17,947 nt of DNA from Roseibacillus sp. (GTDB lineage Bacteria; Verrucomicrobiota; Verrucomicrobiia; Verrucomicrobiales; Akkermansiaceae). Where the stretch lies: assembly GCA_965242925.1 (NCBI GenBank), contig CBDEUM010000028.1, forward strand, positions 1 to 17,947, read 5' to 3'. Below, piece by piece: positions 6,001-12,000 of this stretch. A program made the position numbers. Within the stretch, counting starts at the first letter, position 1, and every line of letters begins with the position of its first letter.

Positions 6001-9000
6001 GCGCCACTTCGAAAAGGCCCTCCGGCTGAACCCGGACGATAGCCTGGCTCACTTCCAGTTCGCCGCCTTCCTCGCTCCCCGGGACCCCGCCACCGCGATT
6101 TCCCGCTACCGGACCGGCCTCCACCTCCGGCCCGACAATCGCTTCGCGGCCAACAATCTGGCCTGGCTCCTGGCTACTCACCCCCGGGAGGAGATCCGAA
6201 ATCCCGCCGAGGCGCTCAAGATCGCCCTCCGGCTCGACCGGGAGAGCGGAGGCCGAGTAGCCAATCTTCTCGACACCCTCGCCGCCGCCCAGGCTGCCAC
6301 CGGGAACTTTGAGGCTGCCGCGGCCTCCGCCCGCAAGGCTCTGTCCCTGCCCCAAACAGCTCAAAACAAACAACTTGCAGAGGGCCTCAACGCTCGCCTG
6401 ACCCACTATCTGGAGGGCAAGCCCTACCTTGAGACGGAGTCCGCTCAATAATCTGGATCACCGTTTCCTGTCCCTTTCCACCACTCTCCACTCCACCGAC
6501 AATCAGGTATCAAACCTCTCCCTGATAAATATCCTTAATGCTTACTTATTCAGGATTGCGAATAACTTCACCAACATTTACCAGATTTTTTCATTATCAT
6601 CGTTGACTAGGCCTCTCAATTTCCTTCAACTCTAGAGGTTCAAAGAAATTTGAGCCATCGTTCTAAGCCACGCCATAACATGAAGAAACCCATCACCTTG
6701 CTCATCCTCGCCAGCTTGGCTCTCCCGGCCACCGCGGCAACCTACTCTAACAATTTCGACGGCTATGCCGACGGCACCACGGATCTTGGTGATGGCACGG
6801 CCTTCAATGGTGCCTCCGCCTCCATTCAGGGTGGTCGCCTGCAACTCACCATCGACAACCAGGGCCTTGGCTTCGCCAGTTTCACCATCCCCGCCCTGGC
6901 CAACTCCTCGCAGGGTTGGTCGATGTCGGCTGATATCGAGATGTTCGATGCCGTTGGGGGCAACCCGCCGGCCGACGGCTTCTCCTTCAACTACGGTGAC
7001 TTCGCCGTGGGCGAGCGAGGACAGGCCGAGGACGGCATGGCCGGACGTCCGGGCGTGACGAGCAACCTCTCCTTCGAGGTCGACACCTGGATGAACTTTG
7101 ACGCCGAACAGGGTGTCAACATTTCCGGAGTCATTGGTGGGGTCGACATCCAGAATCAGCTTGGGGCTTTCAACAACGGACCCATTCTCAACGACGGCCA
7201 GACAGTGACCGGGACCATGACCGCGAGCTACGATGCCGTCGCGGGAACAGTGTCCTTTGTCACCACCGGCCTCAACACCAACGCCGACTTCGTCGACATC
7301 GACCTTGGCGGAAACAGCGGGGACGACGCCTGGAACTTTGGCTTCTCCGCCCGAGTTGGTGGCGCCAACCAGGACCTCTTCATCGACAACCTGGTCATCA
7401 CCACCGTGCCGGAGCCCAGTGGACTCGCGCTCCTCGGCTTGGGAGCCTTTGGGTTCTTCCTGCGCCGCCGCCGGTAACTGACTTTGGCTTTAAGTTTTCA
7501 TGTAACGGGGCTTCGATCTACGAAGCCCCGTTTTCTTTTGCCCCGTTATCCACTTCCTTTTGACCGAATCACAGTTATAGATCCGTTACTCTCTTCGATG
7601 ATCGCTACCCTTGCAGGAAAGCCTCTCACTGTCCCTGTAAAGAAATCCTCCCACCCCTCATGATGCCCTTCCGAATATCCCCTTCCCTGACAGGCCTCAT
7701 GGCCTCCTTCTCCCTTCTGAGCAGTGGCCTGACCCTTGCCGCGACCTACTCTAACGATTTCGACTCCTACCCCGACGGCACCACGGATCTTGGTGATGGC
7801 ACGGCCTTCAATGGTGCCTCCGCCTCCATTCAGGGTGGTCGCCTGCAACTCACCATCGACAATCAGGGCCTTGGCTTCGCCAGCTTCACCATCCCCGCCC
7901 TGGCCAACTCCTCGCAGGGTTGGTCGATGTCGGCTGATATCGAGATGTTCGACGCCGTTGGGGGCAACCCGCCGGCCGACGGCTTCTCCTTCAACTACGG
8001 TGACTTCGCCGTCGGCGAGCGAGGACAGGCCGAGGACGGCATGGCTGGTCGCCCGGGTGTGACGAGCAACATCTCCTTCGAGGTCGACACCTGGATGAAC
8101 TTTGACGCCGAACAGGGTGTCAACATTTCCGGAGTCTTGGATGGCGTCGACATCCAGAATCAGCTTGGGGCTTTCAACAACGGGCCCATTCTCAATGACG
8201 GCCAACGAGTGATCGGGACCATGACCGCGAGCTACAATGCCGCTAATGGAACGGTGTCCTTTGCCACCACCGGCCTTGAAACCAACGCCAACTTCGTTGA
8301 CATCGATCTTCAGGGGGCCGTCGGGGACGACGCCTGGAACTTCGGCTTCTCGGCCCGGGTCGGTGGTGCCAACATGGACGTCTTCATCGACAACCTGGTG
8401 ATCACAACCGGTGATGGAGGAGGAGGCAGCCCGGACCGCGATGGAGACGGTCTCTCTAATGTCTACGAGGAAGCCAACGGCCTTGATCCCGACGACGACG
8501 GTACCATTGGCGAATCGGCCCCCGGGGCCAAGGACGGTCCTAACGGCGCCCTTGGCGATCCCGACGGCGACAGCCTGACAAATACCCAGGAACAGGCGTT
8601 GGGAACCGATCCCCAGGATGTCGACACCGACGGTGATGATCTTACCGACGATGTCGAGGACGGCGGCGGCATCTACGTCAGCGCCAGCCAGACCGGAACC
8701 GACCCCCTCACGGCCGACACCGATGGTGATGGCCTCCCCGACGGCGTGGAGGATCCCAATCTGCCCTTCGTGAATGCCAGTCAACCCGGCACCGACCCCA
8801 ATAATCGCGACACCGATGGCGACTTCACCGGTGACGGGTCCGAGATTGACCAGGGTCGCGATCCCACTGTCCCTGACGGCGGCGGCGGCAGTGCTTACGT
8901 CCAGGACTTCACCTACCCCGACGGCACCACTGATCTTACTGATGGCTCGGTCATGACCGGCAGTTCGGCCAGCATTCAGGGCGGACGCCTGCAACTCACC

Positions 9001-12000
9001 ATCGACAACGTGGGTGGCGGCTTTTCCAGCTTTTCCATCCCTGCCCTGGAGGGCTCTTCCGTGGGATGGAGCGCCACTTTTGATCTCGAGATCTTCGACG
9101 CCGTTGGTGGCAACCCTCCGGCCGATGGCTTCTCCTTCAACTACGGCAATGCCCCCCTCGGCACTCTCGGCTGGGCGGAGGAAGGCATTGACCCCAACGT
9201 CGCATCGGAGAATGTCTCCTTCGAGGTCGACACCTGGATGAATGCTGACGCTGAGCAGGGTGTCAACATCTCAGGGGTTGCGGGTGGTCAGGATCTCGGG
9301 CAACTCGCCTTCACCAATGGTGTCATTCTCGACGATGGCCAACGGGTGACCGGTACGGTTGAAATCGAATGGGATCCGGTCAACGGGGCCAGCTTCACCA
9401 CCACCGGACTCAACACCAACGCCGACTTCTCCACTGTCAGCACCGCCGCCTTCCAGGCCGATGATGATTTCACCTTCATCATCTCTGCCCGCGTAGGCGG
9501 AGCCAACGAGGACCTCTTCATTGACAATCTTGTCGTGACCACCGGTGCTCCCGGAGACGCCGACGGGGATGGCCTCTCCAATGCCTACGAGGAAGTCAAC
9601 GGACTCGATCCCAACGACGACGGAACCATTGGCGAGTCCTCGCCCGGGGCCACGGACGGTCCCAACGGGGCCCTCGGCGATCCGGATGGTGATGGATTGA
9701 CCAACACCCAGGAGCGTGACCTGGGAACCGATCCCCAGGATGATGATACCGACGGAGACACTTTGACCGACAGCGAGGAACTCAGTGATGCCAACGGTTT
9801 TGTCACTAACCCCTCCCTTAGCGATAGCGACGGCGACAGCCTCAGCGACGGCGAGGAAATCAACACCCATGGGACTGACCCCCTCCTTCGCGACACCGAC
9901 GGCGATACTATAACAGACTCGGCCGAGATCAACAACGGCACCAATCCCCTCGTCTACAATCCGCCTCCCTCTGGCTACTGCCAGAACTTCGACGGCTACC
10001 CCGACGGTACCACGGATCTTGGTGACGGCTCCGTCATGGCTGGTCAGGCCGCCAGCATCCAGGATGGCAAGCTCCGCCTCACCATCGACGGCCAGGGCCT
10101 TGGCTTTTCCAGCTTCTCCATCCCGGCCCTGGGTGGATCCGCCGATGGCTGGACGGCCTCCTTTGATGTCGAGATCAGCGACGGCCCCGGCGCCAACGTG
10201 CCGGCCGACGGCTTCTCCCTCAACTACGGCGATGCCCCCCTCGGCACTCTGGGCTGGGCGGAGGAAGGCATTGGGCCCGCCGACGCATCGGAGAATCTCT
10301 CCTTCGAGGTCGACACCTGGATGAACTTCGACACCGAACAGGGCGTCAATATTTCCGGCGTGGCCGGTGGGATCGATGTCGGTCAACTCGCCTTCACCAA
10401 TGGACCTATTCTCAATGATGGCGCTACCGTTACGGGCACGGTTTCGATCACCTGGGATCCCGTCAACGGGGCGACCTTCATCACCACCGGCTTCGACACC
10501 AATGCCGAATTCCTCAACGTCGCCACCGGTGCCTTTGTCCCGGATGACTCCCACACCTTCATCATTTCCGCGCGGGTGGGTGGAGCCAACGAAACCCTCC
10601 TCATCGACAATCTCTGCATCCTCACCGGACCGCCAACCAAGACGCAGTTCGAGCTCAGAAATGTGGGCAGCGATCTGGAGTTCACCTTCGATAGCGAGGC
10701 CGGCAAAGTCTACGACATCCTCAGCTCCACCGACCCGGAAGCCGAACCGGATTCTGCCGCCTGGGCCGTGTGGCAGGCCGACATTCCCGCCACCGCACCC
10801 GTTAACGTGGAGACCTTTGCACGACCCGCGGATGCCAGGCGCTTCTTCGTGATCCGGGAGAAGGATGCCCCGCCCTTCTTCGTCGAGGACTTCGAATCGG
10901 GCCAGGGTGATTGGACCACGGGCGTGAACGATGCCAACGGGAATACTGCCTGGGTATTGGGATCTCCCGATGGAAGCACCGGGCCCATCACCGGCGCTGA
11001 TGGCTCAGGCAATGCCTTCGCCACCAACCTCGGTGACTACGGGAATGATGCCGATATCTTCCTGCGATCGCCCGTAATCGACCTCACCGGTGGTGGAATC
11101 ACGACCGCCACCCTCACCTTGGATCATTACCGTGATGCCGATGGCTTCGGAGACCTTTTCGGAGTGCGTGTTCTCAGAGCCGGTGACCTGAGCGAACTGG
11201 GAACCCTCGATCCGGATCCCATCGTTTTTGATGCGGACTGGGTGGAGTTCAGTGGAAACCTTCCCGCCTCCGCGGTGGGCGAGGAAGTCATCCTCGAGTT
11301 CTGGTTCACCAGCGATGCCACCAACGATGCCTTCAGCGGCTGGTCCATCGACAACGTGGCTGTCGGACTGCAGTAATACAATCACCACCCACACCTGCTT
11401 TAATGGGGCCATTCCCGACAGCGGATGACCCCGTTTTCGTCCAACTGAAACGGCGCATGACGTTTTCGACAAGCAAATGGGAGGTTCATTGCTTGAAAAA
11501 CAGCCTGGCGTGTGCCTAATCCTGACCAGATACAACATGAGAATCCCCTGTCCAGTCTGCGCCACCCTGATCATGGCCGGGGAGGAACATGTCGGCATGA
11601 AGAACCGCTGTGTCACCTGTCGAACCAAGTTCCTCATCCCCTCCCGCGAGGATGGCCAGGCGCAAATCCTTGAACGCGGTGTGGCGCCGCAGTCGAGCGT
11701 CCCCACCCTGCAGGTCCGACCCCCGGAAACCGCTTTGCCAAGCAACCCCGGAAGCGAAAAGAAGGCCCCGCCTTACAAACTGCTCACCTCTTCCGATCCG
11801 TTACGGGCTCCCACCAATGCCCCCGGCGGAAAAACCTTCCGGGCTCTCCCGTCCGTTCCACCACCACACCCTTCCGGGACTGAACCTCCTCCCAGGGTTC
11901 AGGTCCACCTCAGGAAAAAGTTGGTGCGGCGGAAGATCCCCAAGAAAAAGGCCGTCAGAAAACACAGTCTTGAACACCTCCCCGCCCTCGATCCCGACCC

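Follow-up and report, generated by a model that had tools for sequence, protein, structure and literature searches.

Why does a small, exosortase-tagged lectin gene lie just ahead of a giant secreted protein that carries a near copy of its single domain? The question arises in a window of 17,947 nucleotides of a Roseibacillus sp. genome (G000; contig CBDEUM010000028.1, positions 1 to 17,947), in which both genes, like all features given below, are read from the + strand. The reading that we favor, with a probability of about one half, is that the short gene is terminated separately and encodes an exosortase-sorted, single-module paralogue of a lectin module present three times in the giant, and that the same glycan specificity would be made in an anchored and in a multivalent format. 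In translation, the short gene (6680..7477) yields 265 aa from its ATG, in a frame already open from a TTG at 6650, and comprises a signal peptide (6680-6736), an L-type lectin domain (6737-7405) and a PEP-CTERM tail (7406-7474). The tail displays the PEP motif, the hydrophobic helix and, at the very end, a basic cluster, RRRR (VPEPSGLALLGLGAFGFFLRRRR, followed by the stop), and scores above the cut-offs of both PF07589 (29.9 bits, cut-off 20.7) and TIGR02595 (26.4 bits, cut-off 16). The source genome has one exosortase gene of the EpsH family (PF09721, 135.1 bits; G000:C14:350112-350888), and we infer from these sequence features that the short protein is processed by exosortase and placed on the cell surface.

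The giant (7660..11376, 1238 aa) opens with a signal peptide (7660-7740), which is followed by lectin domain D1 (7741-8409), a TSP3-repeat linker (8410-8886), lectin domain D2 (8887-9543), a second TSP3 linker (9544-9969), lectin domain D3 (9970-10626), a spacer (10627-10839) and a C-terminal domain (10840-11373). Its linkers are built of bacterial TSP3 repeats (TSP3_bac, PF18884; 27.6 bits, cut-off 25, in three stretches). In BLASTP comparisons, the short protein is identical to D1 at 208 of 238 positions (87%), to D2 at 142 of 215 (66%) and to D3 at 135 of 223 (61%); counting the 223-aa domain alone, its identity to D1 is 91%. These values agree with the survey's finding of 92% over 224 aa and of internal copies at 61-66%. 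Contigs from RNA libraries, which may hold DNA and whose depth is unusable for ranking genes, cover the short ORF in four runs from four studies, with a single contig spanning 6664-7488, and also cover parts of the giant. Between the two genes stands a terminator-like hairpin followed by a T-run (7504..7540; 12 pairs, 8 of them GC), which is conserved in the related genome G012; RNA-library contigs end near it, at 7488 in two runs and at 7517 in one, a weak hint that the short gene has its own transcript.

The domain common to the two proteins is, on its modeled fold and its motifs, an L-type lectin. Its AF2 model (pLDDT 92.2) has legume lectins as its best Foldseek matches (E 6e-11, probability 1.0, TM 0.6-0.68), and a VIA structure comparison aligns 197-202 residues at Z 17.6-16.4, with ERGIC-53 at Z 17.6, an archaeal legume-lectin domain at 17.2 and SraP at 16.6. 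The fold is likewise that of the L-type lectin adhesins YwfG (Z 17.0) and Aap (Z 15.4), but these and SraP come from Gram-positive bacteria, are of the LPXTG or serine-rich-repeat type, and have a single lectin module without an anchored twin. The Pfam model of L-type lectins (PF18483) scores both proteins far under its cut-off of 78.3 bits (short, 18.9; giant, 26.6); a profile of 29 copies of the domain reaches PDB 7elv at E 6.6e-4. P78, A79, D80 and G81 together with E114, D116, T117 and W118 are invariant across the 29 copies, and the PADG and E-x-D-T-W motifs, whose residues we take to be the sugar and metal ligands, align with the PADGFA and VEFDTW of solved lectins. From fold and motifs we infer that the module works as a metal-dependent L-type lectin, with predicted glycan binding.

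At its other end, the giant carries a domain of about 176 aa, delineated by an iterated HMM search, with a MAM/CBM-like jelly-roll fold. Its model (pLDDT 87) retrieves MAM domains, the cleaved-adhesin domains of gingipains and CBM4/16 with Foldseek. The domain is common to about 43 proteins of G000 (43 matches), always at the extreme C-terminus with no sorting tag behind it, and the other copies are 38-79% identical to the window copy in the alignment. The choice-of-anchor J family (NCBIfam NF038128) is matched by 17 of the 23 aligned copies (best E 1.4e-16), and the window copy gives no match to it at E<=1. An anchor role is implied by the name of the choice-of-anchor families, which embody the same idea of one extracellular domain with alternative C-terminal ends; the J-like domain here differs in that it is itself the extreme C-terminus. 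This MAM-like domain could allow the giant to bind the surface unaided.

At the DNA level, similarity between the short gene and the giant sets in abruptly where the signal peptide is cleaved, 54-57 nt past the ATG at 6680, and stops at ...ITT, directly ahead of the PEP-CTERM tail; in this pair, neither the upstream DNA nor the signal peptides can be aligned. Such sharp borders with unrelated upstream regions had been described for the pairs at large and are seen in the window, but in 8 of the 19 pairs that we delineated across the genome similarity begins at residues 1-3 and includes the signal peptide. The near-identity between sharp borders, flanked by unrelated signal peptides and C-termini, arises because the lectin core and D1 have exchanged sequence by gene conversion. 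The short gene itself is old and conserved, and sits at a fixed place directly after an ASPIC gene: G000, G012, G014 and G009 all preserve its signal peptide, its tail and its syntenic position, the short genes of these four genomes having in common the signal peptide MKKPI..LALPA.AA and the tail, whereas the signal peptides of the giants differ. In G000, G012 and G015 the giant follows downstream, whereas in G014 and G009 it is found about 8 kb upstream.

In a protein tree, D2 and D3 cluster by orthology, and the short genes join the D1 of their own genome (SH-aLRT 99 in G014 and 97 in G012); an AU test, whose groups were defined after the first tree had been seen, rejects a clade of short genes with p 6.5e-6 over the whole domain and with p 3e-45 when nt 1-480 are taken by themselves. 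Sliding DNA identity between the short gene and its own D1 amounts to 96.1% in G014, including a 384-nt stretch at 100%, and to 90.3% in G012. The dS between the same two partners is 0.21 in G000, 0.083 in G014 and 0.25 in G012, as against 0.71 (short-short) and 0.81 (D1-D1) between the orthologues of G000 and G012. The more recently converted part of the short domain in the window comprises nt 1-480 (6737..7216; counterpart in the giant, 7741-8220), where the short gene and D1 differ at 25 positions; the remaining 189 nt have 32 differences (Fisher p 4e-6), and nt 481-576 are 81% identical to the gene's own D1 but 97% to the short gene of G009. D2 and D3 of the G014 giant have their orthologues in a G009 giant with a very divergent D1, which suggests that the D1 of G014 was overwritten by sequence resembling that of the short gene. 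Both short and giant genes are under purifying selection; omega between orthologous short genes is 0.18-0.29. Judging by tree, AU test and dS, the lectin core of the short gene and the D1 of the giant have undergone repeated, independent gene conversion in at least three species. The earlier proposal that twins are kept matched by gene conversion can thus be upheld for the window pair but is not general, many other pairs having a dS from 0.8 to above 2. Conversion between close direct repeats needs no selection, and matched specificity may then be a by-product. Gene conversion among the surface-protein paralogues babA and babB of H. pylori leaves similarity within a genome above that between orthologues, along with mosaic tracts. 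Both features recur here, but the partners have 265 and 1238 aa, and one internal module alone is exchanged. A literature search found no paper joining "PEP-CTERM" with "gene conversion".

How far the arrangement extends was assessed with our own genome-wide ORF and regex scan for PEP-CTERM proteins, which gave 34 hits, 3 of them discarded as spurious and 31 kept. Of the PEP-CTERM ORFs, 29 measure 150-360 aa, and 19 of these have a long partner, defined as an ORF of >=450 aa with >=50% identity over >=140 aa; among the 5187 other ORFs in this size range only 56 do, and these 56 are by appearance mostly fragments, out-of-frame ORFs or repeats. The gene sets differ from those of the survey, which had counted 14 of 23 short proteins with a giant partner, often a few genes off, and the pattern is the same: a related giant lies no more than 10 kb away on the same contig in 15 of the 19 pairs. 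Its observation that different pairs are barely similar also recurs, short proteins stripped of their tails matching one another at E<=1e-3 in only 5 of 465 comparisons. The contention that a twin copies the first domain of its giant fits the window pair and fails in 7 of 19, where an internal copy is equally or more similar. Most pairs are only 55-80% identical, and within-pair dS spans 0.2 to above 2 over the 19 pairs; hence many of them are old and currently escape homogenization, and in the old ones (dS above 0.8) the specificities of short protein and giant may differ by now. As far as the accessible passages of Haft et al. 2006 (PMC1569441) and the PepA family (NF033554) describe PEP-CTERM/exosortase (EpsH) substrates, these agree with the short proteins in the signal peptide, the PEP motif, the hydrophobic helix, the RRRR cluster and the single exosortase gene, as well as in their many copies per genome and in tails more alike within than between species. 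They differ in that the proteins here are mostly single folded lectin-like modules, each with a close copy in an untagged giant neighbor, and those passages of PMC1569441 hold no short/giant pairing of this kind.

Does the short protein, then, hold its giant on the cell? On this account the PEP-CTERM twin would anchor the cognate giant through like-with-like pairing of lectin domains, and selection would keep the domains matched. The genome-wide pair-specificity of the similarity, the adjacency of 15 of 19 pairs and the repetition of conversion in three lineages, in G014 even across about 8 kb, speak in its favor. L-type lectins, moreover, often self-associate. Myxococcus TraA is a further parallel, being a surface protein whose C-terminal sorting tag (the related MYXO-CTERM) is tripartite and whose lectin-like head is variable. 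In the excerpts on TraA available, it recognizes identical TraA homotypically, its specificity being like-with-like. TraA differs in that it binds TraA on another cell, has another kind of head domain, which is PA14-like, and has no giant secreted twin. Thrombospondin, in which type 3 repeats and an L-type lectin domain are joined, has on its lectin domain a site for trans interactions and matrix accumulation, according to the portion of PMC4501361 at hand, and its C-terminal domain matches our lectin model at Z 14.0-14.1. Its signature domain (PDB 1ux6, 2rhp) consists of type 3 Ca-binding repeats and an L-type lectin domain, the kinds of element that alternate in the giant, but sequence identity is only 10-11%, and the giant carries its lectin module three times, ends in a MAM-like domain and lacks a coiled coil. 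The comparative data, however, argue against an obligatory tether, giants with the domain being widespread without a short twin. Among representative genomes, the short PEP-CTERM form occupies only 4 of the 54 loci with this domain, and a search of same-genus genomes with this query did not find the short gene in 14 of 18, G008 having a partial short ORF cut by a contig end. G015 retains the giant with the short gene reduced to a remnant of about 130 nt, the G009 short gene is maintained by purifying selection even with the closest giant domain as far off as dS 1.8, and that of G021 is a singleton, a search of its own genome at E<=1e-10 yielding no paralogue. The equally well-matching internal copies, the low identity of most pairs and the conserved terminal adhesin-like domain that the giants themselves own likewise count against such a tether, which we consider unlikely.

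The losses and unmatched states tolerated in G015, G021 and G009 fit the absence of any functional coupling, whereby fast-evolving surface lectins would undergo birth, death and module shuffling, the short genes would act alone, and similarity would reflect common origin and proximity-driven conversion. The wide range of pair ages, the confinement of the short form to few species, the variation between species in the giant at the locus and the mosaic nature of the G014 giant point the same way. On the other hand, a partner is found for 19 of 29 PEP-CTERM ORFs as against about 1% of other ORFs, mostly next to them, and an FG-GAP/ASPIC-type gene lies within 4 kb of 15 of the 20 twin genes but of only 1 of the 11 PEP-CTERM genes without a twin; without selection for the arrangement, the recurrence of one gene set around unrelated passenger domains would be difficult to account for. 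We hold this explanation to be possible, if doubtful. Far less plausible is a variation system, in which the short gene would be a donor or acceptor cassette diversifying the exposed lectin domain in the manner of silent pilin or adhesin cassettes. Mosaic conversion tracts and the apparent copying of short-like sequence into the G014 D1 would suit it, but the short gene comes with a signal peptide, a sorting tail and a terminator of its own, is covered by RNA-library contigs and is under purifying selection. Each locus, moreover, has a single donor, and conversion here draws the copies together instead of driving them apart.

The reading of one lectin module in two formats would have the cell make a single glycan-binding specificity twice: once as a monovalent protein fixed to the envelope via its PEP-CTERM tail and exosortase, and once as a long, Ca-binding (TSP3), trivalent protein with a MAM-like domain at its end. 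Together, the two could tie the cell to, and cross-link, one polysaccharide, be it its own exopolymer or a marine particle glycan. Matching would then arise from a common ligand and proximity-driven conversion, and direct binding of twin to twin would not be required. A precedent for exosortase substrates holding polysaccharide at the cell is provided by Nostoc, where, in the part of PMC12188702 available, the polysaccharide associated with the cells falls when the exosortase CrtB is lost, whereas the soluble polysaccharide does not.

The gene directly upstream of the window pair (2600..6451) encodes, by its Pfam domains, an FG-GAP/ASPIC-UnbV/thioredoxin-like/TPR lipoprotein with a lipobox-like LAPGC close to the N-terminus, in a single frame interrupted by an internal TGA (4493-4495) that is a candidate selenocysteine codon. 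The TGA is followed by a hairpin (4507-4523) in which one pair covaries across 8 sequences, the TGA context DL-TGA-SFxWRQVV is found in 9 paralogous loci, and tRNA-SeC is present in the source genome. The recurrence of this candidate-selenocysteine FG-GAP/ASPIC lipoprotein gene beside twin genes is a new observation.

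The short gene runs on the forward strand from an ATG at 6680 to 7477, with its frame open from a TTG at 6650. Its product consists of a signal peptide, a single domain of some 223 aa, and the PEP-CTERM tail VPEPSGLALLGLGAFGFFLRRRR (translation), which scores 29.9 bits with PF07589 (cut-off 20.7) and 26.4 with TIGR02595 (cut-off 16). A strong terminator-like hairpin (7504-7532) lies between it and the giant gene (7660-11376), whose 1238-aa product has its own signal peptide, unrelated to that of the short protein, three copies of the same domain (copies 1 to 3; aa 28-250, 410-628, and 771-989), bacterial TSP3 repeats between these copies (27.6 bits versus a cut-off of 25), and a C-terminal tail of about 250 aa. 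By BLASTP, the short protein matches copy 1 at 208/238 positions (87%; 91% over the domain alone), copy 2 at 142/215 (66%), and copy 3 at 135/223 (61%). At the DNA level, neither the upstream regions nor the signal-peptide codons of the two genes can be aligned; their near-identity begins exactly at the predicted cleavage site and stops at ...ITT, short of the tail.

The domain, modelled with AlphaFold2 from 29 natural copies (pLDDT 92), retrieves legume lectins in Foldseek (E 6e-11), with VIA-align Z scores of 17.6 for ERGIC-53, 17.2 for an archaeal legume-lectin domain, 17.0 for YwfG, 16.6 for SraP, and 15.4 for the lectin domain of Aap; the thrombospondin C-terminal domain scores 14.0-14.1 against the same model. 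The motifs PADG and E-x-D-T-W are invariant in 29/29 copies, and a profile search pairs them with two elements of solved lectin structures, the ADG loop and the VEFDTW strand; these residues are the putative sugar and metal ligands. The Pfam L-type lectin model matches the domain only far below its cut-off.

The arrangement recurs across the genome of the window (42 contigs, 4.58 Mb). ORFs were called anew and scanned with a PEP-CTERM pattern, which gave 34 ORFs, 31 of which remained once three had been discarded as spurious. A long partner (an ORF of at least 450 aa with at least 50% identity over at least 140 aa) was found for 19/29 PEP-CTERM ORFs of 150-360 aa, as against 56/5187 other ORFs of the same size, and most of these 56 look like fragments, repeats, or out-of-frame ORFs. 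For 15 of the 19 partnered ORFs, a related giant lies on the same contig at a distance of no more than 10 kb, while the 31 short proteins, stripped of their tails, match one another in only 5/465 pairs. The pair-specific similarity between PEP-CTERM proteins and giants that was the core of the survey's finding is thus real and far beyond chance. Its details call for correction: an internal copy is as close as the first domain of the giant, or closer, in 7/19 pairs, and the signal peptide is included in the similarity in 8/19. In other pairs the common domain is Laminin_G_3, F5/8 type C, or one of no assigned family, indicating that the pairs employ different beta-sandwich modules. Most PEP-CTERM proteins of one genome can now be given a fold, that of lectin-like modules. 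We rejected the idea that the pairs arose by recent movement of the PEP-CTERM tail between genes as a mobile module: between unrelated short genes, tail identity reaches no more than 74% over 66 nt and has a median of 52%.

The giants form one class by virtue of a common C-terminal domain of about 176 aa, which in the window occupies 10840-11373. An iterated HMM started from the last 178 aa of the window giant finds this domain in about 40 ORFs, where it forms the very C-terminus, and a genome search gives 43 matches (the window copy and about 42 other ORFs). Its carriers are large secreted proteins, and nearly all the giant partners are among them. Copies are 38-79% identical to that of the window even where the passenger domains are unrelated. 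The choice-of-anchor J model NF038128 matches 17/23 copies, though not the one in the window, and the C-terminal 249 aa of the window giant retrieved no family from Pfam or NCBIfam. The predicted structure (pLDDT 87) resembles MAM domains, the cleaved-adhesin domains of gingipains, and CBM4/16. Within the order the domain is patchily distributed, being found in 7/40 other sampled genomes at E<=1e-10, one of which has 22 matches. Among the matches listed in our literature search, no functional study of the choice-of-anchor J domain was found. With this common end, each pair can be described as one passenger module offered in two versions, one carrying a PEP-CTERM tag and the other built into a long multicopy body closed by an adhesin-like domain, and the same end defines a partner class for PEP-CTERM proteins, namely, giants ending in a choice-of-anchor-J/MAM-like domain. 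The conserved domain could serve in attachment or sorting, and a giant may need no twin to stay at the surface.

The history of the window pair was traced by searching 31 related genomes for the short gene. Full-length versions are present in G014 (89% identity), G009 (85%), and G012 (79%), compared over residues 5/10-275, and these share the signal peptide and tail of the window's short gene, whereas the signal peptides of the giants differ. In every genome with a full-length copy, the short gene lies directly 3' of the ASPIC/TPR gene. The giant is immediately downstream in the window's genome, G012, and the related G015, and about 8 kb upstream, between spermine-synthase-like and FG-GAP genes, in G014 and G009. 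The conserved signal peptide, tail, and position indicate that the short gene is old and orthologous across these genomes, and the omega values of 0.18-0.29 between its orthologues indicate that it has been maintained. The giant of G014 (locus L013, 3219-7148) is a mosaic in which the signal peptide resembles that of a 1859-aa giant of G009 (locus L016), copy 1 is short-gene-like, and copies 2 and 3 together with the C-terminus are like a 1293-aa giant of G009.

A tree built from 33 copies of the domain groups copies 2 and 3 by orthology but sets the short genes beside copy 1 of their own genome (SH-aLRT 99 in G014 and 97 in G012). At the DNA level, the short gene and copy 1 of its own genome agree at 96.1% of positions in G014 (including 384 nt at 100%), 90.3% in G012, and 91.5% in the window, and short genes of different genomes agree at 79-90%. 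A clade of the four short genes, a grouping chosen after the first tree had been seen, is rejected by the AU test, both over the whole domain (p 6.5e-6) and over nt 1-480 (p 3e-45). Within a genome, synonymous divergence (dS) from the short gene to copy 1 amounts to 0.21 in the window, 0.083 in G014, and 0.25 in G012, against 0.71 for the short genes and 0.81 for copy 1 when the orthologues of the window's genome and G012 are compared. The window pair is itself mosaic, in that its first 480 nt contain 25 differences and its last 189 contain 32 (p 4e-6); nt 481-576 of the short gene are 97% identical to the short gene of G009 versus 81% to its own giant. For copies 2 and 3, the orthologue of the G014 giant is a G009 giant with a very divergent copy 1, which suggests that copy 1 of G014 was probably overwritten by short-gene-like sequence. 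On these phylogenetic grounds, gene conversion between the short gene and copy 1 is shown for the window pair, and it provides a clean case of such exchange between genes that differ in architecture. We found no paper combining PEP-CTERM and gene conversion. The survey had held that the pairs are kept matched in this way; the tree, the AU test, and dS bear this out for the window pair, but it is not general, as within-pair dS spans 0.2 to >2.

The survey had further proposed that the twin tethers its cognate giant through like-with-like pairing of the domains. The comparative and distributional data disfavor an obligatory tether of this kind. Among 54 domain-bearing loci in representative genomes, which are labelled as Roseibacillus and other Verrucomicrobiales MAGs, the short PEP-CTERM form is present in four; the remaining 50 are without it, and their domain ORFs are long or cut by contig ends. 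G015 keeps the synteny and the giant and has only a 3' remnant of about 130 nt of the short gene. Conversely, the short gene of G009 is conserved though the nearest giant domain stands at a dS of 1.8, and that of another relative, G021, has no paralogue at E<=1e-10 in its own 99%-complete genome. Support for self-association of the twins comes from analogies only: the L-type lectin domain of thrombospondin is described as mediating trans interactions between thrombospondin molecules (PMC4501361), and the homotypic binding of TraA is described as recognizing identical TraA. The reading that we favor is that a putative glycan-binding module would be made in two forms, one anchored and one multivalent. 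By analogy, a role of exosortase substrates in holding polysaccharide is suggested by Nostoc, where loss of the exosortase is reported to lower cell-associated but not soluble polysaccharide (PMC12188702). A sizeable alternative to this two-form reading is that the coupling of the short gene and the giant is only evolutionary. At the syntenic site in G015 (locus L017, 7267-7578), the remnant comprises the last strands of the domain and a degenerate PEP-CTERM tail at about 80% identity.

Upstream of the short gene lie an FG-GAP gene (2600-4495) and an ASPIC/UnbV-thioredoxin-TPR gene (4517-6451), which constitute one frame split by a TGA at 4493-4495. The context DL-TGA-SFxWRQVV recurs in nine paralogous loci of the genome, and the split has the same position in the orthologues of G012, G014, G015, and G009. 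Eleven nucleotides after the TGA there is a hairpin with a GGUCG loop (4507-4523; one covarying pair in eight sequences), for which there was no Rfam match, and the genome encodes tRNA-SeC. The product is probably a selenocysteine lipoprotein, judging from these sequence features. A cysteine counterpart of the candidate site was not found among five large single ORFs matching the FG-GAP and ASPIC queries and one further FG-GAP ORF, as none of these runs collinear with the split genes around the TGA; a literature search linking selenocysteine with FG-GAP gave nothing relevant. Fifteen of 20 twin genes, one of them frameshifted, are within 4 kb of FG-GAP and ASPIC/UnbV-thioredoxin-TPR genes or of one large ORF matching both (about 12/17 independent loci, since some twins share a locus), many of them at only 60-300 bp; a FG-GAP/ASPIC gene is within 10 kb of 1/11 PEP-CTERM genes that have no twin. 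PEP-CTERM twins thereby gain a recurrent third neighbor, the probable selenoprotein lipoprotein. The complete set of FG-GAP/ASPIC gene, short twin, and giant with a choice-of-anchor-J-like end is seen at 15 loci of the genome (2600-11376 in the window). Duplication of these cassettes as units is unsupported in a small sample of six loci, where FG-GAP/ASPIC divergence and that of the giants' C-termini give nonsignificant Spearman coefficients of -0.44 and -0.30.

A more ambitious proposal, which we regard as improbable, is that the approximately 15 surface cassettes (selenocysteine FG-GAP/ASPIC-thioredoxin-TPR lipoprotein, PEP-CTERM lectin module, and TSP3 giant with a MAM-like end) make up a thrombospondin-like addressable matrix, in which the module and giant of each would recognize each other, or one glycan, in a cassette-specific manner, with addresses matched by gene conversion. 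If this were true, the cassettes would represent a bacterial equivalent of the way in which thrombospondins assemble a matrix. Environmental bacteria encode many PEP-CTERM proteins, most of which are given no biochemical role in the literature consulted here (PMC1569441 and PMC12188702). A literature search on PEP-CTERM and lectin did not return the twins. The organism has a marine source, and the findings open to experiment the question of how marine Verrucomicrobia build polysaccharide matrices or become attached to them.

In four metatranscriptome libraries, drawn from four studies, assembled contigs extend over the entire short ORF and over parts of the giant, a single contig spanning 6664-7488; such libraries may contain DNA. 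The interval 7518-8160 is covered by no contig of the four RNA runs, which is not proof of separate transcripts, and contig depth is greater over the short gene than over the giant, a difference that provides no basis for ranking expression or for separate transcripts. One contig of run X18 joins 6797 in the short gene to 8948 in copy 2 at homologous positions; as it resembles the window there to only about 93%, its likely source is a relative carrying a recombinant form, or else an assembly chimera.

Other contigs of the genome show three further features. At C30:358210-359047, a PEP-CTERM twin lies in two overlapping frames (216 aa and an 80-aa tail ORF) and shares 57% identity with the N-terminal part of the giant encoded at C30:363225-366245; either a frameshift in the gene or an error in sequencing would account for the split. 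At C33:2235-7212, a 277-aa ORF that lacks a PEP-CTERM tail and precedes one of 524 aa shows 91% identity to residues 1-275 of the adjoining 792-aa giant, a stretch that includes the signal peptide; a frameshift has probably disrupted a tandem paralogue here. Finally, C12:47500-52300 and C17:46600-51000 are near-duplicates (short genes 87%, tails 95%, and neighboring ORF 98% identical), which may reflect a true duplication or a second strain in the assembly (contamination 3.2%).
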